Origin: Squalus acanthias
Taxonomy: Eukaryota
Reading direction: 5' to 3'
DNA: 64,000 nt
NCBI GenBank assembly: GCA_030390025.1
Contig: JASTWF010000080.1
Span: forward strand, 62,001 to 126,000
Each line of letters starts with the position of its first letter. The first letter of the stretch is position 1. The position numbers and the translations under genes are program-made. This document shows, in pieces, positions 5,025 to 58,277 of this stretch. The notes below the pieces were generated by a model. The model searched no databases, was not told where the DNA came from, and was given only the letters and a program-made list of their open reading frames with translations.

Positions 5025-5031
5025 CTTGGTT

Positions 5032-5345: not shown

Positions 5346-5470
5346 GCCATTTCGTCAGGACCTAACCTCGGTTAGGATTTAATATGAACTTTATAAGAAA
5401 TTTCTAGACCTGAATGGTATATTGAGGGAGTTCTGATTTAAGTTCTACAAGGCCTGATCAGGGACTTCTT

Positions 5471-6357: not shown

Positions 6358-6504
6358 GTTGTCTCTAGAGACTTAAATCTGGGTCTTAGTACCACTGTCA
6401 GTAAAACACTCCTTCTATACTTAACAATATACGAGATGGATATAGATATAAATATAAGTAGATGGTTCTGTATCAACTCATTAACACACACGTTGGTCGC
6501 CAAC

Positions 6505-8300: not shown

Positions 8301-8316
8301 TCTCTCTGATTCTTAC

Positions 8317-8430
8317 CTCTCCGTTGTTTTATCCAGATGAATATTCCGAATATCCCGATTATAACCAGTGCCGCAACTAATGCCATTATAATTCCAGGAT
8401 GGGAGCATGCACCACTGTTTTTCGGTATTT
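8317..8430 (-). CDS. MHC class I gene 1 connecting peptide/TM exon
   Basis: [38 protein letters not shown]; tttcag acceptor, gtaaga donor. Confidence 0.85.
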
Positions 8431-23400: not shown

Positions 23401-26400
23401 GATGGGCTGAGTGGAGTGTCCCAGGGATCAGTGCTGGGAGATCGGTTGATTGGAGTGTCCGAGGGATCAGTGCTGGGGCCTGAGTTGAGTGTCCCAGGGA
23501 TCAGTGCTGGGAGATGGGCTGAGTGGAGTGTCCCAGCGGTCAGTGCTGCGAGATGGACTGAGTGGAGTGTCCCAGGGGTCAGTGCTGGGAGATGGACTGA
23601 GTGGAGTGTCCCAGGGATCAGTGGTGGGACATGGACTGAGTGGAGTGTCCCAGGGGTCAGTGCTGGGAGATGGGCTGAGTGGAATGTCCCAGTGGTCATT
23701 GCTGGGAGATGGACTGAGTGGAGTGTCCCAGGGATCAGTGCTGGCAGATGGGCTGAGTGGAGTGTCCCAAGGATCAGTGCTGGCAGATGGGCTGAGTGGA
23801 GTGTCCCAGGGATCAGTGCTGGGAGATGGACTGAGTGGAGTGTCCCAGGGGTCAGTGCTGGGAGATGGGCTGAGTGGAGTGTCCCAGGGATCAGTGCTGG
23901 GAGATGGGCTGAGTGGAGCGCTAGACATTGACCAGTACACATGGTTAAAAGGTCATTGCTTCAGCAGGAACATCGACGCCTCCTCCCAACACGCATGCTC
24001 GTTAGTGTTACGATCTGTTGAATGCTCTCCGCACATTCTCCATCCATGAGTGAGTGCCTCTGTCCCTAATAGTCTTCACTGCCTTAACTCTCTGAGGTAT
24101 TTATCACAGAGAGTCCCATTCTCCTTTCACACTGCCTCCTGGATTGGCATTGCCCATTCTGCTCTACTGGAGAAGACCGATCTCACCCCCAGATATATGA
24201 ATATACACCGAGACACAAAAAGAAGCCAGGAATTGCCCAACAAGCTTCCCTTTCCTGGATGGTCTCAACCATCTCACCATATTCTCAACTTGCTCTATCG
24301 CAAACCTCTCCTGATCTTCGTCAATGTGGACAGAACTTTGTAAATATCTCGATCAGAACAGGGAGAAGGAACAGAATAACCGTCTGTGTGTCCCTGATTC
24401 TTGGTGGCCATACACTATACAGTCCAGTGTTAGAATGCAGTATAACTATGGCTGGGTACCTGTCCGGCACCCATTAAACAGGGCAGGCAGTGGGAGATTC
24501 TGCTGATCTTACCGGATGTCTGGTTTGTCCCCTTCATTATCGTATTCAGATTCTCCTTTGCCATGCCTGACCGTGTGTTCCCGAGAACTGTGAGAACATC
24601 CCAGCATTCCACATCGCAAGCGTCTGCCATGAACTGCTGCCTGGGGATCATCCGACGGATATCAGTGTCATGATAATTAAGTTGAACTCCCTTCACCATC
24701 GCAACATTAGTAACCTCGGGAAAGTCACTGATGCCAAAGATTGCTGTGTACATCACAGTAAGTGAGTTAGTGTCTGTAAAATAAACAATTAAAGGGACAG
24801 ATTAATAGTCATAGGGGTAAAAATTAGGTCGCGCCCCATTTGGGGCGCAAATATCGTCTGGACGCAAATATTAGCGCCTGGCGCTAATTATCGGCACTGA
24901 CTGGAAACTTCACTTTTAACGCCCCGGGAGGTGAGTGGAGCGCTAAATCAGGCGCTGCACACCTGTCTTAAGGCGCAAAGGCCGAGCAGTGAGGCGCTAA
25001 CTCAGAGCGCTGGCGAAGCTCATGTAATGTCAGTCAGCAATGGAACACACACACAATGGCACGGGCCAGTTCTTAAAGGGGATGGTTAATCTTGCTTTCC
25101 ATCCACATCCTGTTCATTGCAGCCTTGAATCTCGGCCTGGAGAGACTTGCACATCAAATGTGCTGGAAAGAACAATGGAGAGTACCAGGCAAAGAGCTCA
25201 GAGTGCAGCTCCCACAGTCTCTGCTAAATCGATACAAGGAATGGCAAATCAAAATGAACCTGCAAAGTGCTGCTCAGTACCCAAAACTCCTTCACACAAC
25301 GTTGAATCTGTCCAGAAGTCTCTCCCTCTCTCTCTCAGAATGCGTAGTTCAAAAATGCCACCAACAATAAAAGACAGGAAGAGGCCCCCTTTAAATAGCG
25401 CCCCCCCCAGCCCCACAGCGATTGATAGCGTTCCAGTCTTCTGGTCGTTGGATGCGCCAGGCGGTAAGGCAGGGGGCGCCACTCAATTTCCGCTCCGGGG
25501 CGCCACAAGGGCATTGCACCATGGAATGACGTCACAATCTGCGCGTGCAGGTGGTCGCAGCGGTAAGTTTTAGCGCCGCCGCACAATGTCAAGTTAAGTT
25601 CCCGAGCGGCGCAAACATCGCTGCGCCCGGGCGTTAGCGGCTTTGCGCCCCATTAGCGCCCTCTTAAGGCGCTAACGGGAGGCGCAACCAACTGAATTTT
25701 TACCCCAAGATCTCTAAGCTGGAACAGTAACCTGGGACACACCCGGTCTATCTCTAACCAAGGAACAGTAACCTGGGACACACCCGGTCTATCTCTATCC
25801 TGGAACAGTAACCTGGGACACACCCGGTCTATCTGTAACCAAGGATCAGTAACCTGGGACACACCCGGTCTATCTCTAACCTGGAACAGTAACCTGGGAC
25901 ACACCCGGTCTATCTCTAACCTGGAACAGTAACTTGGGACACACCCGGTCTATCTCTAACCTGGAACAGTAACCTGGGACACACCCGGTCTATCTCTAAC
26001 CTGGACCAGTAACTTGGGACACACCCGGTCTATCTCTAACCAGGAACAGTAACCTGGGACACACCCGGTCTATCTCTAACCAGGAACAGTAACCTGGGAC
26101 ACACCCGGTCTATCTCTAACCTGGAACAGTAACTTGGGACACACCCGGTCTATCTCTAACCAGGAACAGTAACCTGGGACACACCCGGTCTATCTCTAAC
26201 CTGGAACAGTAACCTGGGACACACCCGGTCTATCTCTAACCTGGAACAGTAACCTGGGACACACCCGGTCTATCTCTAACCTGGAACAGTAACCTGGGAC
26301 ACACCCGGTCTATCTCTAACCTGGAACAGTAACCTGGGACACACCCGGTCTATCTCTAACCTGGAACAGTAACCTGGGACACACCCGGTCTATCTCTAAC

Positions 26401-28803
26401 CTGGAACAGTAACCTGGGACACACCCGGTCTATCTCTAACCTGGAACAGTAACCTGGGACACACCCGGTCTATCTCTAACCAGGAACAGTAACCTGGGAC
26501 ACACCTGGTCTATCTCTAATCAGGAACAGTAACCTGGGACACACCCGGTCTATCTCTAACCAGGAACAGTAACCTGGGAAAAAACCCGGTCAATCTCTAA
26601 CCTGGAACATTGACCTGGGATAAATCCAACTCTATCGGAAACTTAACCAGGGGACATCTGGAGAGAGATATTGAGGAGATCCTTCTGACCAGAGAACATC
26701 TGGAGAGAGATATTGAGGAGACCTTTCTGACCAGGGAACATCTGGAGAGGAATTGTGGATAACCCGAGGGCAGGTCTGTTGTTTATCGTCATAACCAGGA
26801 AACATGTGGGAATAAAAATTCGATTGCCCCGGAAAACGGGTGCGGGGATCTCAACGCGCAATCAACCCACACCCGGTCAAAGTACTGCAGGAAGCACGCA
26901 AACTTCGTGCTGTCTGGTAAATATGATTGTAACGTGCAGCCAACGCTTAACATGCTGCTGAGAGGCTGCATGCCTCAGCAGGGGGCCCAAGTTCTTGCGA
27001 GGCTAGCACCACTTAAAGCTAGCCTGCACTACTTAAAGCCAGCCTGCACGTCTTAAAGGGGAGGTGCATTCTGGCTGCAGCAGGTACTGGAAGTCATTGT
27101 AGAGGTGTATGTGACCTACAGGTAGAATGAAGATGATGCAACATGGCAGAGAGGGCTCCCAGATTTTCTGATGCAGTACTCGAGGGCTCCCAGATTTTCT
27201 GATGCAGTACTCGAGGGCCTGGTGCAGCAGGTGGACAGGAGGAGAGATGTCGCTGAATCCACAGGGGACCAGGAGGCCCTCCAGACAAACTGTGAGAAGG
27301 CAATGGGAGCAGAAAGCCGTCGTGGTCAATGCCAGCAGGGCAAGAAGTTTAATGACCTCACGCCAGTGGTCACGGTCAGTGAATTCATCTTCAAATGCCA
27401 CATCCTTACAACTGAACCACTGCTCAATTCATCACCCGCCCCTCCTTCACTCTCACCTACCAACAAACTCCATCAATCACGATTCATACCTCACATTCAT
27501 AGCACCACCTCACCCTCACAAACTTAGCACTGCTGAACCCTCACACCCACAGCTCACACCTTGCACACACTGCCAGCTATTCAACCATGACAGCCACATC
27601 ACCCAAACACAAGGTGGATACAAACTACTGCACCCATGTCTGGGAGCAACTAATCTAAGCAGAAGCCTTGAAGTAAGCTGCCACACCAATCCCTGGAGAC
27701 GTCAGCAACTTCAAATAAGATAACAAACCACCAAACACTTCTACAAACTCACCAAGAGCCAGTAGAAATCAATCAGCACCTAACCTGAAAGCAGTTGATG
27801 GTCCCTTTAAATAGCGCTGGTGGGCGGTCCTCCCAGCATGTTCAGCTGTGTGTCTTTAAGAGAGGGCGTTAGCTGGAGTGTGGAGCTCAAAAATGGCAGC
27901 GCTGGTGTCAAATCACCATTACACACTGACTGACGTCACGATCTGCCTACCCTGCAAACTTCCGACGCACACTCCCAGCGCCCGCGCTAACAAACTACCC
28001 AAAATGGTGTCCGCGCGGCCCACACCAGAAGTGGGTGCGCGTGGCGCGGAATCCATTTTAGACACAAAACGCCACCCGTAGCACCAAAAAACCGAGCGCT
28101 ACCGAGTCGAATTTCGCGGCCGCGGTGAGAGAGAATTCAGAAATGAACAGAAGGGAAACAGTGATATTTGGGAAGATGAAGTGCGTTGCCATGGGGTGCG
28201 GTCACTCTAGGAACAGTCTGACTGTCGACCAGGGGTGATGGACAATCAGGGGCAGCAGCTCCACTGTGCTTCACAGATCCTGTAATGACCACTTTACACA
28301 TGGGCAGTAGGGGCCCAAAGGATGTTGGTGGTGGATTGTCTGAGATAACCTGGCCTATTCAACCACGAGGGCATCACAGCTGAGCCTGGCGTGGGTTAAA
28401 CATGGATTATCCTCCCCGCACAGTTCAGAACACTTTAGTCCAGGAGAGGTGAAGCTGTTTCCCGTCTCCCAAACAACGTGAACATTAAAATTGCCCATTT
28501 CAACCATTTTCCACTTGCTACAAGCCTCCCTGCTCTCTGTATTCCTGCGTGTTGCTGTCAGGAGGCCTGCACACAACTCCCACCGCAGGCTGACGGCCTG
28601 TGCTGGCTCCAATGGTGTGAAATATCAGGCAGGATGTAGAACCGGCGGCCGATCAAACATCACCCTTTTCAAACTCTCGCCAAAAGCTCAAAATCACCCA
28701 CACACAGAGAGAGAGAGAGAGTGAGAATGGAGGGATGAGTTCTGTACTTACCGGAAGAGATCCAGGAAAAACACAGGGATATGGAGAAAAGGATCAGCAA
28801 CAT
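8317..28803 (-). CDS. Nonclassical MHC class I heavy chain, gene 1 (multi-exon; the paralogous cytoplasmic exon is missing)
   Basis: Exons: leader 28752-28803, alpha1 24513-24773, alpha2 10726-11001, alpha3 10331-10609, TM 8317-8430. All have GT-AG boundaries, phase 1, and open frames. Confidence 0.88.
8770..10285 (+). mobile_element. Degenerate CR1 LINE in the alpha3-TM intron of gene 1
   Basis: NFKGM..NW..QW..FK; [16 protein letters not shown]...[11 protein letters not shown]...[19 protein letters not shown]...SKFADGTKLGG; CR1-type 3' end CCTGTTCCTATGTTCC. Confidence 0.85.
10331..10609 (-). CDS. MHC class I gene 1 alpha3 (IgC1) exon
   Basis: VQPEVFIS...[21 protein letters not shown]...PNHNGTHQ...[10 protein letters not shown]...W; 279 nt. 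Confidence 0.93.
10726..11001 (-). CDS. MHC class I gene 1 alpha2 exon
   Basis: GVHIFQW...[10 protein letters not shown]...W.A...TKEKWN...[12 protein letters not shown]; 276 nt. Confidence 0.92.
11055..11215. repeat. ~60-bp tandem repeat in intron 2 (also 41045-41265 and 62585-62865)
   Basis: AGAGTCACAGTCTGATCAGAGGGGAAAGGGACTGTAGAATCAGGGGGAAATGGGGGGTT units. Confidence 0.85.
11439..23918. repeat. 12.5-kb array of a 39-bp satellite (with 34-bp variants) in intron 2 of gene 1
   Basis: Consensus GAGTGGAGTGTCCCAGGGATCAGTGCTGGGAGATGGGCT, roughly 320 units. Confidence 0.97.
24513..24773 (-). CDS. MHC class I gene 1 alpha1 exon
   Basis: DTNSLTVMYTAIFGISDFPE...IPRQQFM...WD...NQTS with the conserved N86 glycan site; 261 nt. 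Confidence 0.9.
24814..25706. mobile_element. 893-bp non-autonomous TIR element in intron 1 of gene 1
   Basis: Ends GGGGTAAAAATT...AATTTTTACCCC; paralog at 44343-45235. Confidence 0.75.
25712..26750. repeat. 40-bp minisatellite followed by a short 42-bp repeat, intron 1 of gene 1
   Basis: CTGGAACAGTAACCTGGGACACACCCGGTCTATCTCTAAC tandem units. Confidence 0.95.
26809..28121 (+). mobile_element. Harbinger-derived non-autonomous element with a Myb/SANT-like gene remnant
   Basis: Imperfect TIRs (GG.....AAATTCGA); flanks GTG/GCG (perfect GTG TSD in the paralog); frameshifted RAPRFSDAVLEGLVQQV..RR / RRQW..V.VNA / KKFNDL. Confidence 0.7.
28752..28803 (-). CDS. MHC class I gene 1 leader exon
   Basis: MLLILFSISLCFSWISS + G|GTAAGT. 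Confidence 0.85.
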
Positions 28804-29065: not shown

Positions 29066-29299
29066 GAGAGAGACTGAACCAGCCTGGGACACCAGCTCCA
29101 GTGTAAAGGGAGGAGACACTGAGATCCCGGGCTCCCCCCTCACAGTCAACACATTGACACTGGTCCCCCTCCCCTGGGGACCCTTAACACTGGCTCTGCT
29201 CCAGACTGGAGTAACACCACAACATCTTACAGTTATCGACCACATTTAATAGAGTGAACATCACACGGGACATCACAGAGCAACTCACCGAGCGGGAGA

Positions 29300-30993
29300 G
29301 AGTGAGGGGAGGAGACAAACTAACAGAGAGTGAGGGGAGGGGGTCAAACTAACAGAGTGAGGGGAGGGGTCAAACTAACAGGGAGTGAGGGGAGGGGGTC
29401 AAACTAACAGAGTGAGGGGAGGGGATCAAACTAACAGGGAGTGAGGGGAGGGGGTCAAACTAACAGAGAGTGAGGGGAGGGGATCAAACTAACAGAGAGT
29501 GAGGGGAGGGGATCAAACTAACAGAGAGTGAGGGGAGGGGGTCAAACTAACAGAGTGAGGGGAGGGGGTCAAACTAACAGAGTGAGGGAAGGGGGTCAAA
29601 CTAACAGAGAGTGAGGGGAGGGGGTCAAACTAACAGAGAGTGAGGGGAGGGGTCAAACTAACAGAGAGTGAGGGGAGGGGGTCAAACTAACGGAGAGTGA
29701 GGGGAGGGGGTCAAACTAACGGAGAGTGAGGGGAGGGGGTCAAACTAACAGAGTGAGGGGAGGGGTCAAACTAACAGGGAGTGAGGGGAGGGGATCAAAT
29801 TAACAGAGAGTGAGGGGGGGGTCAAACTAACAGAGTGAGGGGAGGGGTCAAACTAACAGGGAGTGAGGGGAGGGGGTCAAACTAACAGGGAGTGAGGGGA
29901 GGGGTCAAACTAACGGAGAGTGAGGGGAGGGGGTCAAACTAACAGGAAGTGAGGGGAGGGGTCAAACTAACAGGGAGTGAGGGGAGGGGGTCAAACTAAC
30001 AGGGAGTGAGGAGAGGGGGTCAATCTAACAGGGAGTGAGGGGAGGGGGTCAAACTAACAGAGAGTGAGGGGAGGGGGTCAAACTAACAGGGAGTGAGGGA
30101 AGGGGGTCAAACTAACAGAGAGTGAGGGGAGGGGTCAAACTAACAGAGAGTGAGGGGAGGGGTCAAACTAACAGGGAGTGAGGGGAGGGGGTCAAACTAA
30201 CGGAGAGTGAGGGGAGGGGGTCAAACTAACAGAGTGAGGGGAGGGGATCAAATTAACAGAGAGTGAGGGGAGGGGGTCAAACTAACAGGGAGTGAGGGGA
30301 GGGGTCAAACTAACGGAGAGTGAGGGGAGGGGGTCAAACTAACAGGAAGTGAGGGGAGGGGTCAAACTAACAGGGAGTGAGGGGAGGGGGTCAAACTAAC
30401 AGAGAGTGAGGAGAGGGGGTCAAACTAACAGGGAGTGAGGGGAGGGGGTCAAACTAACAGAGAGTGAGGGGAGGGGGTCAAACTAACAGGGAGTGAGGGG
30501 AGGGGGTCAAACTAACAGAGAGTGAGGGGGGGGTCAAACTAACGGAGAGTGAGGGGAGGGGATCAAACTAACAGGGAGTGAGGGGAGGGGATCAAACTAA
30601 CAGAGAGTGAGGGGAGGGGATCAAACTAACAGAGAGTGAGGGGGGGGATCAAACTAACAGGGAGTGAGGGGAGGGGATCAAACGAACAGAGAGTGAGGGA
30701 AGGGGGTCAAACTAACAGAGAGTGAGGGGAGGGGGTCAAACTAACAGGGAGTGAGGGGAGGGGGTCAAACTAACAGAGAGTGAGGGGGGGGGATCAAACT
30801 AACAGAGAGTGAGGGGAGGGGATCAAACTAACAGAGAGTGAGGGGAGGGGGTCAAACTAACAGGGAGTGAGGGAAGGGGGTCAAACTAACAGAGAGTGAG
30901 GGGAGGGGGTCAAACTAACAGGGAGTGAGGGGAGGGGGTCAAACTAACAGGGAGTGAGGGGAGGGGATCAAACTAACAGGGAGGGGAGGGGGT
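29300..30993. repeat. G-rich ~30-bp minisatellite (repeat A) upstream of gene 1
   Basis: GAGTGAGGGGAGGGGGTCAAACTAACAG units. Confidence 0.95.
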
Positions 30994-33900
30994 TGTAAGA
31001 TTTCAATTGATCTCAGAGTTCTTGGACAAGACACCAATAGGCAGCAGCCAGTAAGTTTGAGCAATAGATCAGATTTATTAAGCTTACAGCGTAATCAATA
31101 CTTAACAACAGGCGATAGTTTTAACGAGTAGCTCGCAGACCTTGGTCTCTGGAACCTCTCGGACACAGATGACGTCGTCTTAAGTCTGTTGCTTTGTTCT
31201 CGCAGTAAGTCTGTGTAAAGTTGTTCTTTGAGTGTCGAGGTTTTAACCCTTTTCTCATCAAAAGTTCGCTCAGCCAGTGTCCATAGTCTTTAACAAATCA
31301 CCTTCTTTCATTGGTTCCAATGGTCAAAATACCATTGTCACTCAGACTAAGGGTAGCTTCTTGCCTTTCCAGTATTTATCCTGCAACTTTACCCTGTTCA
31401 TCGTTATCTTGTTTATAGTTCTTCACCCCATTGGAATTCATCTTATCTCTCTTATTCTAGGTTCCCTGGTACAAGCAGTGTTAAAGAAACTCTAATTAAG
31501 CTTAGCATTATAATACGTTATTTACCAATTTAACCTTCACTCGCAGCCTGTGGCTGTTTGTTACCAGAGCTGAGTCAAAACTGCTTTTGACTGTCTCCGC
31601 GGCTATATTCAAACAGTCTTTAACGTTTCCATACCCACAGGGAATTATGGGTAAGATTAGTTGGTCAATGGCTACCTTTGAATTTATACATATGAGATTT
31701 CTCTAAATACCAGTCTTTCGTACAGTCCCCACCTCGAGGATGAAATGTTTCAAACATTGATTCCTCGACTATTTCAATCTATTCTCTGACAAGCGTTGTT
31801 GCAAATTGGAGTCCTGTAATTGAGGGGAACGGAGCGCTTCTCAAAGGAGGCTTTATCCCCCTTGTCATTATAGGTCTGGGTTCTAACTATGACATTCCCA
31901 GGGGCCGACCCTTTACTATTGTCATGGCTGAGGGACACCCCGGGGTCTCCCTAACCATCATGTCGGCCGTGCTGATATTCCTTTCCTTCCAGTGCGTCCC
32001 AGTCTATCATTTCTCCTCCGCCCGCTGCTCCTACTGCTGAATCATACGATCTGGCAGTGGTGACCCTGATCTGACCCCGCCTGGGTCTCCTCTACATTGC
32101 TTCGGATCTTCTCTTTCGGTCTGCTTAATTAACTTGTTGGTGCTGCTTAGTCATAGGCATGAGTACACAATTGGCTTATCCATCGAAGTCTTACTACACG
32201 GGTTACATATATCAAATACACTATCATTACAAGTTGGACAACTAACTGAGCGTGTGAATTAATTCGAACCTAAGGGCGTGCTGATATATCAAGCCCAATA
32301 TCCCACCAGTGTGAGTTTCCCCTTTGCTGTTAATTTCAATATCTATTCTCGAGTTGTCTTGCTCCAAAACATCAAAATGCTTCAGGGAGGAGTTCAGTCA
32401 CATCATGAGCTCACTGAAACCCTCAGACAACAGGTGAATGTAGTATCCGAATTGTGCCACATAATTGTGCAGCTCATACTTAAGTATCTCATTTACTGTC
32501 AGTTTCACTTGAGCATAGGTTTTGATATTGAGTAAAACGAGTTGGTTGATGGGACAGGTCCTGTTCGACCCGTAGATCATGGTAGTTGCGGTAGTAGTGA
32601 CACAGGAGGCACCACCAAAATCACCTCATTCTGGATTCGTGCTGGTTTTTCCCACGAGCTGTTACCTACAAAACACAATTATTACAGTCACAGTTAAATT
32701 CAGTCTTACAATCATTTCACGCGACAACTAATCAACAAATCAGATCTCTCTTTTACTCGTATCCATCTTGTGGATAATTCATGTTAAACATGATTTCTCC
32801 TCAGCCCTCAATTGTCCCAATCCAAATTTCATGTAACTCTCCACTTCAACTACGATTTCATTCCCTCTAACAGGTACCAGTGTGTTTAACTCTATTCTGA
32901 TTGTTTCATTAGTTAGATAGTTTCTCGATGGAGTATGCGTCAATGCTTTAAAAGTTGTCTCACTCTCCTGAGCCACATTAACCATTTCATGTCGTGCTGT
33001 TGTCAAGTAACTGAGAATGTCTGAGACCCGTTCTTCAGTGCAGATTCACCATACATTTCCGGATGGTAATTGCTCCATACGCACAAATCACATTTGCACA
33101 CTCGTACCGGTATCTCAATATCATGCCAAACGTGCCATCCGATACAAGCCATTCCCGGGCTTTCAGATGATCCTATCAAAAGATTGTAGTTGTCTGGAGA
33201 TCTTTGCTCATCTTCCTCTGCATGGTCCCGATGTCTTGGGTAGTGGCCAGACTATCAATTCAGTTTTCTTAAAAAGTACATAGGCAAGACACAAATGTCT
33301 GCAAGAGAAAGCTGTCAATTTACTATTTGTAACTACACTTTCCTGACTTTCACTAGAAAGTTAGGAAAATTCCCATTTGATGGTGTAATTCTCCTGTTTC
33401 TATCTTACATAGAAACATAGAAAATAGGTGCAGGAGTAGACCATTCGGTCCTTCGAGCCTGCACCGCCATTCAATGCGTTCATGGCTGAACATGCTACCT
33501 CAGTACCCCATTCCTGCTTTCTCGCCATACCCCTTGATCCCCCTAGTTGTGAGTATTATATCTAACTCCCTTTTGAATATATTTAGCGAACTGGCCTCAA
33601 CAACCTTCTGTGGAAGAGAATTCCACAGATTCACCACTCTCTGGGTGAAGAAGTTCCTCCTCATCTCAGTCTTAAATGGCTTCCCCTTTATCCTTAGACT
33701 GTGACCCCTGGTTTTAGTTTCCCCTAACATTGGAAACATTCTGCCCGCATCTAATTTGTCTAAGCCAGTCAGGATTTTAAACGTCTCTATAAGATCCCCC
33801 CTCATTCTTCTGAACTCCAGAGGATACAAGTTCAGTTGATCCAGTCTTTCTTGATATGTCAGTCTGGCCATCCCAGGAATCAATCTAGTGAACCTTCGTT

Positions 33901-36900
33901 GCACTCCCTCAATAGCAAGAATGTCCTTCCTCAAGTTAGGAGACCAAAACTGCACACAATACTCCAGGTGTGGCCTCACCAAGGCCCTGTACAACTGTAG
34001 CATCACCTCCCTACTCCTGTACTCAAATCCCCTTGCTATGAAGGCCATCATGCCATTTGCTTTCTTGACTGCCTGCTGCACTTGCCTTCCCACCTTCAGT
34101 GACTGATGTACCATGACGCCCAGGTCTCGTTGCACCTCCCCTTTCCCTAATCTGCCACCATTCAGGTAATAGTCTGCCTCCCTATTTTTACCACCAAAGT
34201 GGATAACCTCACATTTATCCACATTGTACTTCATCTGCCATACATTTGCCCATTCACCCAACCTGTCCAAGTCACTCTGTAGCCTCCTAGCATCCTCCTC
34301 ATTGTTCACACTGCCTCCCAATTTAGTGTCATCCGCAAATTTGGAGATATTACAATTAATCCCTTCGTCCAAATCATTAATATATAATGTAAACAGCTGG
34401 GGTCCCAGCACCGAACCCTGCGGTACCCCGCTGGTCACTGCCTGCCATTCTGAAAAGTACCCATTTACTCCTACTCTTTGTTTCCTGTGTGCCAACCAGT
34501 TCTCAATCCACGTCAACACATTACCTCCAATCCCATGTGCTTTAACTTTGCACACCAATCTCTTTTGTGGGACCTTGTCGAAGGCCTTCTGAAAGTCCAA
34601 ATACACCACATCTACTGGTTCCCCCCCGTCCACCCTATTGGAAACATCCTCAAAAAATTCCAGAAGATTTGTCAAGCATGATTTCCCTATCACAAATCCA
34701 TGCTGACTTGGACCTATCATGTCGCCACTTTCCAAATGGTCTGTTATGACATCTTTAATAATTGATTCCATCATTTTACCCAACACCGATGTCAGGCTGA
34801 CCGGTCTATAATTCCCTGCTTTCTCCCTCCCTCCTTTTTAAAAAAGAGGGGTTACATTAGCCACCCTCCACTCCTTCGGAACTGCTCCAGAGTCTAAGGA
34901 ATGTTGGAAAATGATCGTCAATGCATCCACTATTTCCAAGGCCACCTCCTTAAGTACTCTGGGATGCAGACCATCAGGCCCTGGGGATTTATCAGCCTTC
35001 ACCCTCAATCACTTCCTCTCTCCATTTTACACATCCCATTAATTACCATTCATATCTCATTCATGAGCCTTGGAGGAACTTTACTGTCCAGTACAATATT
35101 TAAGATTGAAAACATAGATCAAACATTCTTACTTGGTCCAAGCTATTAACACTTTTTATTGATCATTATTTTAGAGGATCTTTTATTTTCCCAAAAGTAA
35201 CCCAATATATAGTGCCTGAGTCCATTTTGTCATTTCAAAATTATCCCAAAATCCAAACAGCAGTACTGTTAAACTGAAAGGTTTTGTCAATGTTCAATTT
35301 CATTTCTATCAATTTATCTTCCATTTCTAATTTCAGAAACAAATGATTTCCAGGCTAGGTGGTTTACACAGTGTTTTAACATTTGAGACAGAAGTGCTGC
35401 AATAAGTTTACAAGGTAACTTCCATATAACAAAAGAAAGCAGAGAATCCATTGTGGCTCTGCTTAAGAGCCCAAGGGGTTAATTTATCAAATCATAATTT
35501 TCCTTCTGTCACTCTGGGGAAATATTAACTTAAAATTAAGAAACTTAAATTTAATAATGTCCAATATCTTTAAATTTCATTCAGCAATACTAAAGTTGTT
35601 GCTCGGTGAACTTAAACAGCTGTCAGTGGAAAGGGTTAACTCCTTTGCAGGTTTTTAAGAAGGCGGAGCGAAATTTTGTTAGGCGCACGCAATTGCGTCA
35701 CTTCACGTAAATTAAAAAAATCTTTCCCGATCGAAAAAGACAGTTGTGTTTTCACACTTTAGCTAAACACAAACAGAACAGATAAAACAAAACAAAATAG
35801 CACATGCTTGCAGGAAACAGTAAATTATGTCATATTTCTTATTGTCCTTTCTTCAGATGCCTTTCCAAATAACTGTAAAAACATTGAATACAACTGGAGA
35901 AAAATTCGTTTTTCACATTTAAACAAATCAAATCAAACTGCTTTGGAAGATTTCACCATAGCAACCACGATTCCAAGGTTAAATCTTAGACGGAAACTTA
36001 ATCTTTTGTTAAACAAACTTTTTGTTTTTCTCAGTTTTTCCACACCACCTTAAATTAAATTGTAATTCAAGGGTTTCTTTCCAATTCTTGGGGCACAGTC
36101 TTATTCGCACATTCTTAAAACTTCCAAAATCCAAGACAACACAAAAGGGTTAAATGCTTTTAACACAGAGATGTGGGTGGAGCTAAAACACACATAATAG
36201 ACACTTTTTGTTTTAAAGACAAACTTTCAGACAAAAGGAATACTGTTACTACTTAAACATTGTCAGGAAAACTTTCACACTTTAACACACACTTCCACAC
36301 AAACTGAAATTCCAGCATTTTTTTAAGGTTCCTTTCACTCAGCAAATCTTGTGTTTTATTTGTTTCAGCACAGACGTTAATAACTTCCATGTCAGTGAAA
36401 CTTTAAGTTTCTCTTTTTATTTCTTTTTTTAAATCGACGTCTCAGCAGCTTTTCCTGGCTTTCCAAATCCCTGTTTTTTTCCCTTTGCTGAATTTTCAGA
36501 TTGGTTAGCCTGCAATTTAGATTTTTTTCCTTCTCTATCTCCCCACTCTCTCTCCTGCACTTTATGCTTCACCTCCTTCAGGCTATCTATCAACTGTTCC
36601 TGGTGATATGCCAACGCCATTGTATTTCTGGTTTTACTTTTTAACACGCTCTTTCCCGCTCCCTTCTTTCAGAGAGAAAAATACTCAGTCTAAGCAACGA
36701 TCACGTGCGTTTGACCAAGTCCCTCTGGTCCCCACAACCAGAACCTTACAACGCCCAACTCTGTGATCCCACTTCTGACACCACTGTAAGATTTGGATCA
36801 CAGGTCACACACAGATTACCCAAAGGTTCTTAGGAGTTGTAAGGCTTTTTATTAAAGAGCTACAGTTTAAAGCATAATCAGATATTACTACATGTGATTG

Positions 36901-37522
36901 AAATAGATACAGTAGACACACAACCCGTGACAGATGAGGGCGATCTACGGCCCTAGAATGGAACGAAACAACTGGACAGACGGGGAGGCAGTACGGTGGT
37001 CTCGGATTGGCTGGATTCCTGCAGTCTGCGGTCACTTCCGTTGGGTCATCCCTCGAGCTGTAGGAGGTGTTAGGCCGCAGCCACCTTGGGGAAGCCTTCG
37101 CCCCTAACTGCCTGATTTCCCCTCTCGGTCGTCTACTTTTATAGTTATTTCAGTGGGCTGGTGATTACCTGGTGTCAATCATTTGTTCCCCATCCCATTG
37201 TCCAATTACAAGGGAGAGGTTACCTCTGACAGCCCCCTCCCAGTGTCATGAGGTAATTTTCCTCCTTATCTCTGTTCTAAAGGTCTTGTTGGCCTCTTGT
37301 AGACAGCTTATTTATCCCACAGCTCCTTGCTGTATCTCGTATCAGGCCTAGTTTTGCCCACTCGAAGGCCTATTTTAGTGTTCTGACCTCGTAATTCAGC
37401 TCTCTGTGTACAGCTATTTTTCTGACATGACTGGAATCTTTCTGTGTCATCAACTTAGGCAAACTGCTGATCGAGGGAACCCGTAACAGACTATTATTTC
37501 TTTCAATCCATGATTTCTTACA
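30994..37522 (-). mobile_element. Degenerate ERV-like LTR element with two non-matching LTRs (junction element, copy 1)
   Basis: LTR-A 30994-31724 (TGTAAGA...GTACA) with PPT-like GAGGTGGGGAC at 31725-31735; LTR-B 36785-37522 (TGTAAGA...TCTTACA); PBS TGGTGTCAGAAGTGGGAT at 36766-36783 (tRNA-Leu CAA); env-like TM remnant near 32150-32320. Confidence 0.75.
33408..35000 (-). mobile_element. 5'-truncated CR1 LINE with an open RT frame (ORF 33500-34786)
   Basis: QHGF...SCLTNLLEFFE...[11 protein letters not shown]...[14 protein letters not shown]...KFADDTKLGG...; 3' (TTTCTATG)n tail at ~33408-33425. Confidence 0.93.
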
Positions 37523-37805
37523 AGTGTCTGGGAGGGTGAGACGGGGTCAGGAGGGGGAGTGAGATTAGTCTGACAGGGTTTAACAGTGTCTGGGATGGTG
37601 AGTCGGGGTGAGGAGGGGAGTGAGATTAGTCTGACAGGGTTTAACAGTGTCTGGGAGGGTGAGACGGGGTCAGGAGGGGAGTGAGATTAGTTTGACAGGG
37701 TTTAACAGTGTCTGGGAGGGTGAGACGGGGTCAGGAGGGGAGTGAGATTAGTCTGACAGGGTTTAGCAGTGTCTGGGAGAGTGAGACGGGCTTAGGAGGG
37801 GAGTG
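37523..37805. repeat. ~60-bp minisatellite (repeat B), unit 2
   Basis: Same unit as 292-1177. Confidence 0.92.
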
Positions 37806-37859
37806 AAAAAGTCACAAATACGTCAACAGGGGGAAAGAATCGAAACTTCACTTACTGAA

Positions 37860-40800
37860 TCACAAAGGAGCCGGCACAGAGACATCAGAAGCTGAGAAAA
37901 TAAAACAGAATGTGAGAAATGGGAATAAAATATATAAATAGAGAATGTGAGATATTCTACATCACTGACTGGGCCCAGGAGCCAATCACCTCCCAGCAAT
38001 AACTAAACAGACTCACAAATGATAAATGTGCACAGAGACAAGGGACTGGAGGGCGAGGGACTGGAGAGCGAGGGACTGGAGGACGAGGGACTGGAGGGTG
38101 AGGGACAGGAGAGCGAGGGACTGGAGGGGGAGGGACTGGAGGGGGAGGGACTGGAGGGCGAGGGGCTGGAGGGCGAGGGGCTGGAGGGCGAGGGGCTGGA
38201 GGGCGAGGGGCTGGAGGGCGAGGGGCTGAACGGCGAGGGACTGGAGAGCGAGGGACTGGATGGCGAGGGACTGGAGGGCGAGGGACTGGCGGGCGAGGGA
38301 TTGGAGTTTGAGGGACTGAAGTTTAAGGGACTGGAGGGCGCGGGATTGGTGTGAGTAACGCAGAGTGTAATAAATGTCAGTTGGAATGGGGATAACCCAT
38401 TATTAGAGTGTGAGCACACACCCAGTGTGAGGATCGGAGAGTGTGTACTCACTCTGTCCCTCAGTTCTACATTCCTCTCTCTCACTCTCTCCTCTCAGTG
38501 CCCTGTGCTCCCAGTACTGGAGATTCCCCACACTCGCTCTGTCCCTCAGTTCTACATTCCTCTCTCTCACTCTCTCCTCTCAGTGCCCTGTGCTCCCAGT
38601 ACTGGAGATTCCCCACACTCACTCTGTCCCTCAGTTCTACATTCCCTTCTCTCTGATTCTTACCTCTCCGTTGTTTTATCCAGATGAATATTCCAATTAT
38701 CCCGATTATAACCAGTGCAGCGACTGATCCAATTATAATTCCAGGATGGGAGCGTGCACCACTGTTTTCTGGTATTTCTGAAACACATTTGAATAATATC
38801 AGGATAGTTTCTCTCTTCCCGGATCCATTCCCAGTTCGGTGTCGATGGAGGGACAATTTTAACCTCGCTCGCCCGTCGGGAATCTGAGGGATCGGGTCCA
38901 ACGCTGGTTTTACTCTCGCCTGATCTCACTCTTCATTGGAGTCATTAAAGAGTCTCATTGATGGTGGTGTTGGACCGGCGTTGCCCCGATCCCCGGGGTT
39001 ACCTGCCCGGCGAGCTCGGTTCAATTTACCCCCCATGTCTCTGTGTCCTGTCCTGGGTCCATCCCCAGGGTCACATTGTACGCCCCAGGAGTCAGCATCA
39101 CTGATGGATTTCACATCAAACTTCAAAGGGATGGGGAATAAATTGACTGCAGCAAACTGGGCTGAGCTGGTAATGAGTAAAGCTACAGATAAACAGTGGG
39201 GTAGCTTCAAAAAAAGTACCGGGTACAATCCAACACCAGGACTTTCCCCGACAACGCAAAGACTCCACTTCTGTAGTTAGGCAACCATGGTCGACAAATG
39301 AAAGAAGTGAGAGTATCCAGGTAAAGGGAAAGGCTGACACAGTGACCAGAGATTGAGATACAGAGCACTTAGACAAGTATCGGCTGATCAGAGGGTCACC
39401 CCTCAGCCTTCTTTTTTCAAGTGAAAAGAGACCCAGCCTGTTCATCTTTTCCTGATATGTATAGCCTCGCATTTCTGGTATCATCCTTGTAAATCTTCTC
39501 TGCACCCTCTCCAGGCCTCTATATCCTTTTTATAATATGGCGACCAGAACTGTACGCAGTACTCCAAGTGTGGTCTAACCAAGGATCGATGAAGGTTTAG
39601 CATAACTTCACTACTTTTCCATTCTATCCCTCTAGAAATAAACCCTAGTGCTTGATTTGTTTTGATGGCCTTGTTACCTGTGTCGCAACTTTTAGTGATT
39701 TGTGTATTTTACGCCGAGATCCCTTTGTTCCTCTAACCCACCTCTGGCGTACTACATTCAGTTCTGGGCACCAAACCTCACGTAAGATATATTGGCCTTG
39801 GAAGGGGTACAGAGCAGATTCACCAGAATGATACCAGCTCAGAGGGTTAAATTTTGAGGAGAAAGTTGGCTTGTATTGCACTGAGTGTAGAAGGGTGAAG
39901 GGTGATCACATTGAGGTGTTTAAAATGATAAAGGGATTCGATAGGGTAGATACAGAGAAACTATTTTCACTGGTGGTGAATCCAGAACAAAAGAGTATAA
40001 TTGTACAATTAGAGCTCGGACATTTAGGAGTGAAATCAGAAAGCACTTCTTCACACAAAGGGCAGTGGAAATCTGGAACTCACTCTCCCAAAAGTCTGGG
40101 GGTTCAATTGAAATTTTTATGACTGAGATCGAGTGATTTTTGTTGGGTAAGGGTATCAAGGGATGTAGAGCAATGACGGGTAAATGGAGTTGAGGTACTG
40201 ATCAGTCATGATCTCATTGAATGGTGGAACAGACTCAAGGGGCCGAATGTCCTACTCCTGTTCCTATGATCCATACATGCTCACAGAGACACACGCACAC
40301 ATCCAGTGCAGTTCCTTACCCCACCGATAGACCTTTGCCTCTGCCAGGCTGCTGTGTTCAATTTGACAGGAGTATTGATCCTCATCCCCAGCATTCACTT
40401 CAATCTCGTTCTTGATCTGATGGGTCTCATTGTGGTTCGGTCGAACCCCCGAGGAGTGGCTCTCAGACACTGGCTCTCCATTCCTTAGCCAGGTCACCTC
40501 GATATCTACAGGGTAAAATCCAGTAACCAGGCAGGAGAGAGTGGGCGGTTTGTACTGACTATTGGGGTCACTTCTGGAGATGAACACTTCGGGCTGAACT
40601 GAGAGGGGAAAGGGAGAAAACACAAACAGTAGACAGACACCGAATGGAATGGGAGAACGGTTTCATAGATCTGTGAAGTTAGATCAGAACATGGGATAAA
40701 AACTGAAATCAATACCTTTCCTTTCAAAATATTCCTTTCCAGCTCGCAAATATAAATGTAAACTCTGAGCAAATCCTTCTTCCAGATGTGTTTTCCAATA

Positions 40801-43800
40801 CTTGTTCCAGGATTCATCCGAATTCCATTTTTCCTTAGTCTTCACTGCATAGTGATTGGATGCGACCCATCTCATTCTGTCTGGTTCTAAACTAATATAG
40901 TCCTTTCCGTCATATCCAACACGCATCGATCTCTTAATGGAGCCGTCGTCAGTTATTTCAGCAATTGAAATCCATTGAAAAATGTGAACACCTGTCAGTG
41001 ACCAAACAGGGATCAATAATCAATAATCAATAGTTAATGGAAAATCACAATTCAGTCTGATCAGAGGGGAAAGGGACTGTAGAATCAGGGGGAAATGGGG
41101 GGTTAGAGTCACAGTCTGATCAGAGGGGAAAGGGACTGCAGAATCAGGGGGAAATGGGGGGTTAGAGTCACAGTCTGATCAGAGGGGAAAGGGGCTGTAG
41201 AATCAGGGGGAAATGGGGGGTTAGAGTCACAGTCTGATCAGAGGGGAAAGGGACTGCAGAATCAGGTAGAAATATCAGAAGGGTTCCCAGTGGAAACTGA
41301 TTATTGGACTTTTGGCAGTGAATTCAGAGACCAGCCTGAACCTTCCTATTAATGGGCACAAGTTTAACGGAATGATTAATGGGAAATTGGGCAGAGATCC
41401 ATTATGTTACCCAACCAAGAGGGTTAATTCCCACTAGTGTAAGCAAAGGGGTAAATTCCCAGCACGGTAACAACATGAGTTAATTCCCAACACACTAACG
41501 GAAGGGGTTACTTCACAGAATGGAGTGTCCCAGGGGTCAGTGCTGGGAGATGGACTGAGTGGAGTGTCCCAGGGTTCAGTGCTGGGAGATGGGCTGAGTG
41601 GAGTGTCCCAGGGTTCAGTGCTATGGACTGAGTGGAGTGTCCCAGGGATCAGTGCTGGGAGATGGACTGAGTGGAGTGTCCCAGGGATCAGTGCTGGGAG
41701 ATGGGCTGAGTGGAGTGTCCCAGGGATCAGTGCTGGGAGATGGACTGAGTGGAGTGTCCCAGGGATCAGTGCTGGGAGATGGGCTGAGTGGAGTGTCCCA
41801 GGGATCAGTGCTGGGAGATGGGCTGAGCGGAGTGTCCCAGGGATCAGTGCTGGGAGATGGGCTGAGTGGAGTGTCCCAGGGATCAGTGCTGGAGATGGGC
41901 TGAGTGGAGTGTCCCAGGGATCAGTGCTGGGAGATGGACTGAGTGGAGTGTCCCAGGGATCAGTGCTGGGAGATGGACTGAGTGGAGTGTCCCAGGGATC
42001 AGTGCTGGGAGATGGACTGAGTGGAGTGTCCCAGGGATCAGTGCTATGGACTGAGTGGAGTTTCCCAGGGATCAGTGCTGGGAGATGGACTGAGTGGAGT
42101 GTCCCAGGGATCAGTGCTATGGACTGAATGGAGTTTCCCAGGGATCAGTGCTGGGAGATGGACTGAGTGGAGTGTCCCAGGGATCAGTGCTGGGAGATGA
42201 ACTGAGTGGAGTGTCCCAGGGATCAGTGCTGGGAGATGGGCTGAGTGGAGTGTCCCAGGGATCAGTGCTGGGAGATGGGTTGAGTGGATTGTCCCAGGGA
42301 TCAGTGCTGTGAGATGAACTGAGTGGAGTGTCCCAGGGATCAGTGCTGGGGGCTGAGTGGAGTGTCCCTGGGATCAGTGCTGGGAGATGGGCTGAGTGGA
42401 GTGTCCCAGGGATCAGTGCTGGGTGATGGGCTGAGTGGAGTGTCCCAGGGATCAGTGCTGGGAGATGGACTGAGTGGAGTGTCCCAGGGATCAGTGCTAT
42501 GGACTGAGTGGAGTTTCCCAGGGATCAGTGCTGGGAGATGGACTGAGTGGAGTGTCCCAGGGATCAGTGCTATGGACTGAATGGAGTTTCCCAGGGATCA
42601 GTGCTGGGAGATGGACTGAGTGGAGTGTCCCAGGGATCAGTGCTGGGAGATGAACTGAGTGGAGTGTCCCAGGGATCAGTGCTGGGAGATGGGCTGAGTG
42701 GAGTGTCCCAGGGATCAGTGCTGGGAGATGGGTTGAGTGGATTGTCCCAGGGATCAGTGCTGTGAGATGAACTGAGTGGAGTGTCCCAGGGATCAGTGCT
42801 GGGGGCTGAGTGGAGTGTCCCTGGGATCAGTGCTGGGAGATGGGCTGAGTGGAGTGTCCCAGGGATCAGTGCTGGGTGATGGGCTGAGTGGAGTGTCCCT
42901 GGGATCGGTGCTGGGAGATGGACTGAATGGAGTGTCCCAGGGATCAGTGCTGGGAGATGGGCTGAGTGGAGTGTCCCAGGGGTCAGTGCTGGGAGATGGG
43001 CTGAGTGGAGTGTCGCAGGGGTCAGTGCTCGGAGAAGGACTGAGTAGAGTGTCCCAGGGATCAGTGCTGGGAGATGGGCTGAGTGGAGTGTCCCAGGGTT
43101 CAGTGCTGGGAGATGGGCTGAGGGGAGTGTCCCAGGGATCAGTGCTGGGAGATGGGCTGAGTGGAGTGTCCCAGGGATCAGTGCTGGGAGATGGGCTGAG
43201 TGGAGCGCTAGACATTGACCAGTACACATGGTTAAAATGTCATTGCTTCAGCAGGAACATCGACGCCTCCTCCCAACACGCATGCACGTTAGTGTTACGA
43301 TCTGTTGAATGCTCTCCGCACATTCTCCATCAAGGAGTGAGTGCCTCTGTCCCTAATAGTCTTCACTTCCTGATCTCTCTGAGGTATTTAACACAGAGAG
43401 TCCCATTCTCCTTTCACACTGCCTCCTGGATTGGCATTGCCCATTCTGCTCTACTGGAGAAGACCGATCTCACCCCCAGATATATGAATATACACCGAGA
43501 CACAAAAAGAAGCCAGGAATTGCCCAACAAGCTTCCCTTTCCTGGATGGTCACAACCATCTCACCATATTCACAACTTGCTCTCTCGCAAACCTCTCCTG
43601 ATCTTCGTCAATGTGGACAGAACTTTGTAAACATCTCGATCAGAATAGGGAGAAGGAACAGAATAACCGTCTGTGTGTCCCTGATTCATGGTGGCCCATA
43701 CACTATACAGTCCAGTGTTAGAATGCAGTATAACTATGGCTGGGTACCTGTCCGGCACCCATTAAACAGGGCAGGCAGTGGGAGATTCTGCTGATCTTAC

Positions 43801-46800
43801 CGGATGTCTGGTTTGTCCCCTTCATTATCGTATTCAGATTCTCCTTTGCTGTGGTTGACAGTGTGTTCCCGACACCTGTGAGATATTCCCAGTATTCCAC
43901 ATCGAAAGCGTCTGCCATGAACTGCTGCCTGGGGATCATCCGACGGATATCAGTGTCATGATAATCAATTTGAACTCCCTTCACCATCGCAACATTAGTA
44001 ACCTCGGGAAAGTCACTAATGCCAGAGATTGCTGTGTATATCACAGTAAGTGAGTTAGTGTCTGTAAAATAAACAATTAAAGGGACAGGTTAATGAACAT
44101 TTACAAACACTGTTCAAAGTGAAGCCCATTCACACAATGAAACTCTCCAATAGTCCACCACTTTATCGCAACGTCTGAGATTATAAATATAATAGAATTA
44201 AACTGGGTCAGAATAGATGCCTGCAGCCCCTCCAAACAGGGAGTAAACATGGAATCAGAGTCACTGAGAAGCCCGATGGAGTCCGTGAGGAGATGTGGGA
44301 GAGTCTGGGACACATTCGAGGGGTTGTGGTGTGAAACAGAAGGGGGTAGAAATTAGGTCGCGCCCCATTTGGGGCGCTAATATCGTCTGGACGCAAATAT
44401 TAGCGCCTGGCGCTAATTATCGGCACTGACTGGAAACTTCACTTTTACCGCCCCGGGAGGTGAGTGGAGCGCTAAAGCAGGCGCTGTACACCTGTCTTAA
44501 GGCACAAAGGCCGAGGAGTGAGGCGCTAACTCAGAGCGCTGACGAAGCTCATGTAATGTCAGTCAGCAATGGAACACACACACAATGGCACGGGCCAGTT
44601 CTTAAAGGGGATGGTTAATCTTGCTTTCCATCCACATCCTGTTCATTGCAGCCTTGAATCTCGGCCTGGAGAGACTTGCACATCAAATGTGCTGGAAAGA
44701 ACAATGGAGAGTACCAGGCAAAGAGCTCAGAGTGCAGCTCCCACAGTCTCTGCTAAATCGATACAAGGAATGGCAAATCAAAATGAACCTGCAAAGTGCT
44801 GCTCAGTACCCAAAACTCCTTCACACAACGTTGAATCTGTCCAGAAGTCTCTCCCTCTCTCTCTCAGAATGCGTAGTTCAAAAATGCCACCAACAATAAA
44901 AGACAGGAAGAGGCCCCCTTTAAATAGCGCCCCCCCCAGCCCCACAGCGATTGATAGTGTTCCAGTCTTCTGGTCGTTGGATGCGCCAGGCGGTAAGGCA
45001 GGGGGCGCCACTCAATTTCCGCTCCGGGGCGCCACAAGGGCGTTGCACCATGGAATGACGTCACAATCTGCGCGCGCAGGTGGTCGCAGCGGTAAGTTTT
45101 AGCGCCGCCGCACAATGTCAAGTTAAGTTCCCGAGCGGCGCAAACATCGCTGCGCCCGGGCGTTAGCGGCTTTGCGCCCCATTAGCGCCCTCTTAAGGTG
45201 CTAACGGGAGGCGCAACCAACTGAATTTTTACCCCAAGATCTCTAAGCTGGAACAGTAACCTGGGACACACCCGGTCTATCTCTAACCAAGGAACAGTAA
45301 CCTGGGACACACCCGGTCTATCTCTAACCAGGAACAGTAACCTGGGACACACCCGGTCTATCTCTAACCTGGAACAGTAACCTGGGTCACACCCGGTCTA
45401 TCTCTAACCAGGAACAGTAACCTGGGACACACCCGGTCTATCTATAACCAGGAACAGTAACCTAGGACACACCGCGTCTATCTCTAACCTGGAACAGTAA
45501 CCTGGGACACACCCAGTCTATCTATAACCAGGAACAGTAACCTAGGACACACCCGGTCTATCTCTATCCTGGAACAGTAACCTGGGACACACCCGGTCTA
45601 TCTGTAACCAAGGATCAGTAACCTGGGACACACCCGGTCTATCTCTAACCTGGAACAGTAACCTGGGACACACCCGGTCTATCTCTAACCTGGAACAGTA
45701 ATTTGGGACACACCCGGTCTATCTCTAACCTGGAACAGTAACCTGGGACACACCCGGTCTATCTCTAACCTGGACCAGTAACTTGGGACACACCCGGTCT
45801 ATCTCTAACCAGGAACAGTAACCTGGGACACACCCGGTCTATCTCTAACCAGGAACAGTAACCTGGGACACACCCGGTCTATCTCTAACCTGGAACAGTA
45901 ACCTGGGACACACCCGGTCTATCTCTAACCTGGAACAGTAACTTGGGACACACCCAGTCTATCTCTAACCAGGAACAGTAACCTGGGACACACCCGGTCT
46001 ATCTCTAACCTGGAACAGTAATTTGGGACACACCCGGTCTATCTCTAACCTGGAACAGTAACCTGGGACACACCCGGTCTATCTCTAACCTGGACCAGTA
46101 ACTTGGGACACACCCGGTCTATCTCTAACCAGGAACAGTAACCTGGGACACACCCGGTCTATCTCTAACCAGGAACAGTAACCTGGGACACACCCGGTCT
46201 ATCTCTAACCTGGAACAGTAACCTGGGACACACCCGGTCTATCTCTAACCTGGAACAGTAACTTGGGACACACCCAGTCTATCTCTAACCAGGAACAGTA
46301 ACCTGGGACACACCCGGTCTATCTCTAACCTGGAACAGTAACCTGGGACACACCCGGTCTATCTCTAACCTGGAACAGTAACCTGGGACACACCCGGTCT
46401 ATCTCTAACCAGGAACATTAACCTGGGACACACCCGGTCTATCTCTAACCTGGAACAGTAACCTGGGACACACCCGGTCTATCTCTAACCAGGAACAGTA
46501 ACCTGGGACACACCTGGTCTATCTCTAATCAGGAACAGTAACCTGGGACACACCCGGTCTATCTCTAACCAGGAACAGTAACCTGGGAAAAAACCCGGTC
46601 AATCTCTAACCTGGAACATTGACCTGGGATAAATCCAACTCTATCGGAAACTTAACCAGGGGACATCTGGAGAGAGATATTGAGGAGACCCTCCTGACCA
46701 GGGAATATCTGGAGAGAGATCTTGAGGAGATCCTTCTGACCAGAGAACATCTGGAGAGAGATATTGAGGAGACCTTTCTGACCAGGGAACATCTGGAGAG

Positions 46801-58223: not shown

Positions 58224-58277
58224 AAAAAGTCACAAATACGTCAACAGGGGGAAAGAATCGAAACTTCACTTACTGAA

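Follow-up and report, generated by a model that had tools for sequence, protein, structure and literature searches.

The stretch of DNA analysed here, hereafter the window, comprises 64,000 nucleotides (64 kb) of the shark Squalus acanthias (assembly GCA_030390025.1, contig JASTWF010000080.1, positions 62,001 to 126,000). According to self-comparison of the 64 kb, a head-to-tail, minisatellite-rich array extends across the window, and both ends of the window fall inside this array. Three class I genes of the major histocompatibility complex (MHC) were mapped by exon, all on the minus strand, with leader, alpha1, alpha2, C1-set alpha3 and transmembrane (TM) exons and their splice sites. The junction of every internal unit is occupied by a composite element with two unlike long terminal repeats (LTRs), LTR-B at its 5' and LTR-A at its 3' end; this applies to both complete junctions (2/2), and a third junction is visible on its LTR-B side only (Table 1). 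The unit measures 20,000 bp from the first composite copy to the second. The copy at 1-291 and the first composite copy are separated by 37,231 bp, which falls to 19,982 bp if an inserted provirus (provirus C) and an expanded 39-bp repeat array are discounted.

The composite is an LTR retroelement: TG...CA termini, a primer-binding site (PBS) after the 5' LTR and a purine-rich tract before the 3' LTR are all present, and the two halves are co-oriented and in canonical order. The initial annotation had placed a PBS next to one LTR and a polypurine tract (PPT) next to the other, in agreement with the spacing found here (PBS 1 nt from LTR-B, purine run 2 nt from LTR-A). The purine run is regarded as the PPT from its position before LTR-A. 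The recurrence of the junction at 51002-57522, and partly at 1-291, was likewise borne out: the second copy is 97.5% identical to the first over 6547 columns, with the same PBS and purine run, and 1-291 is 95.9% identical to LTR-B. All 18 nt of the PBS agree with the opening 18 nt of a published tRNA-Leu(CAA) probe (PMC7997516). The region 28800-38500 has no match in Rfam, and no tRNA genes were found in the window.

LTR-A and LTR-B do not produce any BLASTN match at word size 7, and with strict local scoring their similarity stays at chance level (z=1.3, the score being reached by 22 of 150 shuffles). Remote homology was tried with several scorings and shuffle types. Permissive scoring yields z values of 3.5-3.9 with the termini and 2.3-2.9 without them, and the LTR of provirus C compared with LTR-A or LTR-B in the same manner reaches up to 3.4. 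The last 230 nt of LTR-A and LTR-B, terminal 10-mer included, beat 300 of 300 shuffles, from which no kinship is claimed. The ends agree in 10/10 nt at one terminus (TGTAAGATTT) and in 8/9 nt at the other (TGTACGAAA / TGTAAGAAA), and AATAAA lies 86 nt (LTR-A) and 69 nt (LTR-B) from the 3' end. The earlier description of two unlike LTRs of 738 and 731 bp is retained, except that they share more than TGTAAGATTT, as the other termini also match. From the near-identical ends, the similar length and the similar position of the poly(A) signal we infer, as a point not proven, that A and B are different sister families with similar integrase ends.

The two ends of the composite interrupt different minisatellites, as originally reported; repeat B, placed at that time downstream of the gene, sits in its last intron. 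Repeat B possesses an intact unit at the LTR and a frayed far end, and variant repeat-B units beside the LTR are common to the junctions at 1-291 and 57522. No target-site duplication (TSD) surrounds the composite: in neither copy do the flanks match at any length of 3-8 nt (GGGT vs AGTG), which confirms the initial annotation in this respect. Provirus C, which is present only in one unit's repeat B, provides a control. Its flanks match at exactly 4 nt (AGGA/AGGA), and its LTRs differ at 61 of 1100 positions (5.5%). Since a TSD is readable in repeat B, the lack of one around the composite is meaningful.

One integration produces identical LTRs and a TSD. The composite shows neither matched LTRs nor a TSD, provirus C shows both, and the features of a recombinant provirus, i.e. 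discordant LTRs, mismatched TSDs and flanks from two loci, are found in the composite. Because a single integration cannot give unlike LTRs together with unlike flanks, the composite is very probably a fusion of two separate insertions that took place after integration. LTRs that simply decayed apart are unlikely, as the PBS (18/18 nt) and the termini are intact, and decay of one old insertion was rejected.

Table 1. Features of the window (positions are those of the 64-kb stretch)
Feature	Position	Strand	Description
Composite element, first copy	30994..37522	-	LTR-B, PBS, leader, LINE fragment, 3' internal region, purine tract, LTR-A
LTR-B (5' LTR)	36785..37522	-	738 bp; TG...CA; TATAAA at LTR position 380; AATAAA at 36853
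Primer-binding site	36766..36783	-	18/18 nt complementary to tRNA-Leu(CAA) 3' end; 1 nt from LTR-B
AT-rich 5' leader, non-coding	35004..36765	-	33% GC; no stop-poor frame
LINE fragment, 5'-truncated	33405..35003	-	445-codon open reverse transcriptase frame; 5' end approximate
3' internal region	31736..33404	-	44% GC up to ~33250; stop-poor
Purine-rich tract	31727..31735	-	8/9 purines; 2 nt from LTR-A
LTR-A (3' LTR)	30994..31724	-	731 bp; TG...CA; AATAAA 86 nt from 3' end
Composite element, second full copy	51002..57522	-	LTR-A 714 bp, LTR-B 736 bp; same junctions
Third junction copy	1..291	-	Outer part of LTR-B abutting minisatellite B
Minisatellite A	29297..30993		29-bp unit, ~59 copies (Tandem Repeats Finder, TRF); upstream of gene 1 promoter; cut by LTR-A
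Minisatellite B	37523..37806		61-bp unit; in gene 2's last intron; interrupted by LTR-B
MHC class I gene 1	8314..28803	-	Leader to TM; without detected last coding exon; ATG 2191 bp from LTR-A
MHC class I gene 2	37856..48854	-	Leader, alpha1, alpha2, alpha3, TM, last coding exon
Gene 2, last coding exon	37856..37891	-	SDVSVPAP; stop 37862-37860; GTAAGT donor 37855-37850
MHC class I gene 3, partial	58274..62541	-	alpha2 to last coding exon
Foamy-like provirus C, control	1178..7627	-	Inside minisatellite B (292-7926); LTRs 1178-2287 and 6505-7627; TSD AGGA

The only recognisable gene in the composite is a reverse transcriptase (PF00078, E=3.8e-32), located inside a long interspersed nuclear element (LINE) fragment that we take to be of CR1 type; as it belongs to the inserted LINE, it was rejected as the composite's own pol. 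Pfam searches with 12 frames of the internal regions of both copies (best E=0.18) reveal no gag, pol or env, and tblastn of the internal frames finds no match in provirus C. The status of the composite as an endogenous retrovirus (ERV) and not a Gypsy-type LTR retrotransposon, assumed in the initial annotation as far as the ERV is concerned, is thus unproven; the composite of two insertions at the boundary of a ~20-kb MHC unit, which the annotation also proposed, is upheld by the unlike LTRs, the missing TSD and the unit-spaced recurrence. Of 300 shuffles of the leader, 186 are equally stop-poor. One minus-strand frame of the 3' internal region is interrupted by 6 stops over 265 codons, where its two companions have 25 and 26; the region probably holds a decayed open reading frame (ORF), coding on one strand or the other. 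No homologue of this minus frame was found in a word-based search (0 of 4146 candidates at E<=0.01) or with phmmer against 1.84 billion representative sequences (none at E<=0.001), and its single-sequence fold is uninformative (pLDDT 33). The in-register plus frame has 3 stops in its best 265-codon window, a minimum reached by 7 of 500 shuffles, and returned 0 of 1959 candidates at E<=0.1. Read over 31744-32703 (+), the antisense frame of this region is unusually open, with 4 stops in the 320 codons searched, and has hydrophobic stretches and no homologue; it may mirror a decayed ORF on the sense strand or be a genuine antisense ORF.

The GC content of the interior changes optimally at ~33250, ~150 bp past the LINE, with a log-likelihood gain of 14.6 compared to 11.3 at the LINE itself. 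The composition shows no seam where the LINE ends: the 152 bp beyond the LINE have 32.9% GC, like the leader (33.1%, p=1.0) and unlike the coding-like part (43.8%, p=0.007). Because leader-like composition continues past the LINE, its insertion into the leader is weakly favoured by base composition over a LINE that formed the join. Between the two composite copies the LINE differs at 12 of 1598 positions and its flanks at 107 of 4905 (p=9e-5).

Most aligned segments of the three units differ by 1-4%, and there is no long divergent half. The stretch 26750-27599 differs from its gene 2 counterpart at 1 position in 850 bp. Low-divergence patches such as this one and the LINE (0.75%) suggest recent gene conversion or crossover. 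At the other extreme, genes 2 and 3 are 2.8% apart over a 211-bp intron segment (11221-11436 in gene 1) in which gene 1 departs from both by 14.7%; an exchange with an older paralogue is the likely cause. The units are mosaics, and their divergence therefore gives no date for the junction.

Alpha1 of genes 1 and 2 (24511-24774 vs 43799-44062) differs in 13 of 88 residues, with 1 silent codon, and the alpha2 exons of the gene copies show 5-13 residue differences, with all compared exons open. The predominance of amino-acid-changing differences in alpha1 and alpha2 hints at diversifying selection. Within the alpha1-alpha2 intron, the unit of a 39-bp minisatellite is repeated 325 times in gene 1 (11439-23918, 12.5 kb) and 44 times in gene 2 (41521-43205). 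Intron 1 of both genes carries a ~900-bp element with short inverted ends (24814-25709 and 44343-45238), which occurs inverted and ~85% identical within provirus C (5468-6350) and is probably a non-autonomous DNA transposon. LINE fragments in the alpha3-TM intron (39394-39743, 60426-61292, 9046-9994) have deletions and inversions that differ among the three gene copies.

The integrase of provirus C is closest to that of a foamy virus (PFV E=4e-70, vs 6e-15 for Ty3 and ~1e-7 for HIV) and includes an SH3_11 domain; together with the 4-bp TSD this identifies a foamy-like ERV, of which RNase H and integrase remnants are preserved. Its PBS resembles the foamy tRNA-Lys type. At ~4370-5035 it contains a second insert that is bounded on either side by an ATCTTGGT repeat; a 101-aa frame in this insert has no Pfam match and resembles a Penelope/GIY-YIG C-terminus. 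The differences between its LTRs (61/1100) and those between the LTR-B copies (22/582) are not distinguishable at p=0.12, in two comparisons that share one sequence. No fewer than three distinct LTR insertions (A, B and C), two of them in repeat B, are lodged in G-rich minisatellites that flank the gene or lie inside it; such clustering may reflect a preference for these targets or a tolerance of insertions there. In cartilaginous fish, foamy-like ERVs have been described before, in a study where TSDs served to exclude recombinants (PMC5512871).

Relatives of the window genes are numerous among sharks. A search with the alpha2 exon yields 96 candidates, of which 72 proteins pass E<=1e-10; 71 of these are named and come from 13 shark species; the best match, from Pristiophorus japonicus, is 84% identical. 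Matches form 11 clusters each in basking and white shark and 10 in Mustelus, counted as 90% clusters that include isoforms, so that loci are overcounted. The alpha2 tree consists of 72 rows (3 window exons and 69 matches, with 2 short matches and the unnamed match left out) and 92 columns, and 17 of its 66 branches are well supported. The window genes belong to a supported 12-row clade including 7 named species, and other supported clades span species as well. One match, LOC121291255, is 62% identical and is listed as MHC-Ib in a white shark cluster next to BRD2 and B2M (PMC10751288). This cluster is described as that of UDA (single) and UEA (multicopy), and the table in the available part of the paper has at least 16 MHC-Ib rows, 9 plus and 7 minus (PMC10751288). 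From the map position of this one 62%-identical match the window genes probably belong to the shark nonclassical UEA lineage. UEA and UBA are described as expanded nonclassical class Ib families of sharks in the portions available of PMC10751288 and PMC12562908. As far as the former goes, the white shark Ib cluster has mixed orientation and irregular spacing, in contrast to the uniform head-to-tail run of the window. Because the family has been multicopy across sharks since long before, the junction explains at most the latest local amplification, and the phrase "origin of the MHC tandem duplication" of the initial annotation is too wide.

The break lies inside a gene. Genes 2 and 3 end in SDVSVPAP and a stop codon, resembling C-termini of homologues, e.g. 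TSDISVPAPS; none of the three genes yielded a match to the short cytoplasmic exon of DSPS..TYTTA type that homologues possess. The minus strand of the 64 kb contains GTAAGT at four sites, of which two are leader-exon donors and two follow the stop codon by 4 nt. With a donor in this position, repeat B and LTR-B are placed in an intron of the 3' untranslated region (3'-UTR). The unit thus appears to have lost the ancestral terminal exon. The first sense-strand AATAAA past the stop is the one at 36853 in LTR-B, with acceptor-like AGs near 36973 and 36954, ~100-120 nt before it, and LTR-B may, as a prediction, supply the poly(A) site and the 3' end of transcripts. LTR-A, in sense orientation, precedes the next ATG by 2191 and 2148 bp, and between them are promoter motifs that resemble ISRE, CCAAT and TATA boxes. 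In gene 1 the 3' end is different: at 7927-8313 it has no last coding exon, and ~640 bp of gene 2 are replaced by 58 unrelated bp.

The composite is likely to bound a young ~20-kb unit with one MHC class I gene. For its formation, a duplication by ectopic homologous exchange between A and B around a single gene is given an even chance, and is the simplest course since a single recombination event suffices. A and B would have inserted independently and with shared orientation around a single shark MHC class Ib gene, A into minisatellite A ~2 kb upstream of the promoter and B into minisatellite B in the last (3'-UTR) intron. Unequal exchange of their internal regions would then have joined the 5' half of B (LTR-B, PBS, leader) to the 3' half of A (PPT, LTR-A), and the same exchange would have duplicated the ~20 kb between A and B. 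Later unequal crossover of near-identical units would have amplified and patchily homogenised the array, so that each internal copy would end in a B/A hybrid where the terminal exon was. Homologous exchange, duplication in preference to deletion, and poly(A) use of LTR-B are in this account what we infer. Several observations weigh against it: no intact A-A or B-B element and no solo LTR of either type occurs within the window; the permissive excess between LTR-A and LTR-B is non-specific, because the unrelated LTR of provirus C scores similarly; the LINE, for which the longest direct repeat in the flanks is 7 nt at ~30 nt from each end, is without a TSD and could itself be the join; gene 1 carries the 14.7%-divergent segment; and in a family multicopy long before the junction a deletion between neighbours is easy.

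Such a deletion leads to a possible, if rather unlikely, alternative, in which the fusion arose in an existing array between B in the last intron of gene N and A upstream of the promoter of the neighbouring gene N+1, with loss of the terminal exon and of intergenic DNA; the shortened unit would then have been amplified by unequal crossover within genes, and the hybrid would mark the unit and not the start of duplication. It predicts the same junction sequence as the exchange around a single gene, and accords with a family that is multicopy across sharks, with supported alpha2 clades spanning species and with the divergent segment and different 3' end of gene 1, but it calls for one more event, involving paralogues that had diverged beforehand, in units of which most parts differ by just 1-4% and which have no long divergent half. 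That A and B have no internal homology and their halves were instead fused non-homologously, by break repair or microhomology and possibly bridged by the LINE or through an exchange of two LINE copies, is improbable. The unalignable LTRs would be explained in this way, as would a LINE that is young (445 open codons), has no TSD and differs less between copies than its flanks; yet leader-like composition carries on across the LINE, low-divergence patches also occur elsewhere, e.g. at 26750-27599, and LINEs of this type often leave no TSD.

A single insertion, either of an element family with naturally unlike terminal repeats or of one very old decayed element, is very improbable. The interior, ~3.4 kb if the LINE is discounted, does resemble one coherent non-autonomous element with leader, decayed frame and purine tract, and the LTRs agree at their ends. 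However, there is no TSD, the flanks are two different minisatellites, the PBS is perfect, the copies are only 2% apart while their LTRs cannot be aligned, and no internal copy of a terminal repeat exists. Naturally unlike or split terminal repeats are characteristic of DIRS/Ngaro elements, which possess a tyrosine recombinase and internal terminal-repeat copies; this type was rejected, as no tyrosine recombinase was matched in Pfam and self-BLAST shows no internal terminal-repeat copy (best E 0.44). An assembly artefact, i.e. a false tandem duplication or mis-join, is hardly credible: the region is minisatellite-rich and a spacing of exactly 20,000 bp is curiously round, but the three junction copies are 2-5% apart with their own indels and insertions, and the gene copies differ in protein (13/88 alpha1 residues).

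Comparable junctions have been described in mammals, here compared as far as the available parts of the sources go. In the gibbon SERV-K/MER11 provirus 10_73510506-gib the LTRs are discordant and the TSDs do not match, an accepted sign that two proviruses recombined (PMC11379458). It shares with the shark composite the discordant LTRs, the unmatched TSDs and flanks from two loci, but its parents are of the same group with alignable LTRs, the outcome was a translocation, and its reciprocal product is also known, whereas here the LTRs are unalignable and the product is a tandem unit. ERVs at duplication breakpoints with non-allelic homologous recombination (NAHR) are reported for HERV15/AZFa and RHOXF2 (PMC3214919), and an ERV at cassette breakpoints for the mouse Mup central array (PMC2441477). 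As in the window, these cases have an ERV at each cassette breakpoint, a ~98%-identical array and a proposed recombination of nearby ERVs; in contrast, their ERVs are of the same family and the Mup cassettes are 80-kb inverted duplications, while at the shark junction two unalignable LTR types come together, either half interrupts a minisatellite of its own, and the last intron holds the break. For HLA class I (MIC-HLA) duplicons, HERV16 was proposed as the crossover site (PMC6562477), also a retroelement repeated with MHC class I genes at a proposed site of unequal crossover, although the HERV16 copies are ancient fragments of one family at apparent recombination sites and the shark junction is young and base-resolved on both sides. 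The zebrafish BHIKHARI elements are non-autonomous ERVs with a single ORF, without pol and in several sister families (PMC12067270). They resemble the leader-plus-one-frame layout of the composite, as a lead only: BHIKHARI copies possess perfect TSDs, and no Gag similarity was detected in the composite by sequence or by fold. No prior description of the composite was found in CC-licensed PMC papers and bioRxiv.

The mechanism is thus already known from mammals (AZFa, Mup, RHOXF2, HERV16/HLA), and the shark case is an unusually clear one. It is set apart by the pairing of unalignable LTRs, the base-resolved parental sites in two minisatellites, the break in a last intron and the shark host. Earlier candidates for MHC class I crossover (HERV16) are ancient; here the different LTRs and flanking minisatellites of the halves place the insertion of either parent to the base. 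If the internal homology is true, elements whose LTRs can no longer be aligned would still drive ectopic recombination, and annotation by LTR pairs would miss such junctions. From the missing terminal exon, 3' ends derived from an LTR are predicted for transcripts of these shark class Ib genes.

The hybrid probably marks where the recent run of gene copies arose. It is doubtful, but conceivable, that it both created the unit and made the cassette workable, with LTR-B in place of the lost terminal exon (donor at 37855, acceptor near 36973 or 36954, polyadenylation after 36853), LTR-A as upstream promoter or enhancer of the next copy, and G-rich minisatellites, targets of three or more LTR insertions, that set the event up. 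If so, one recombination would have produced a self-contained, amplifiable MHC class Ib cassette.

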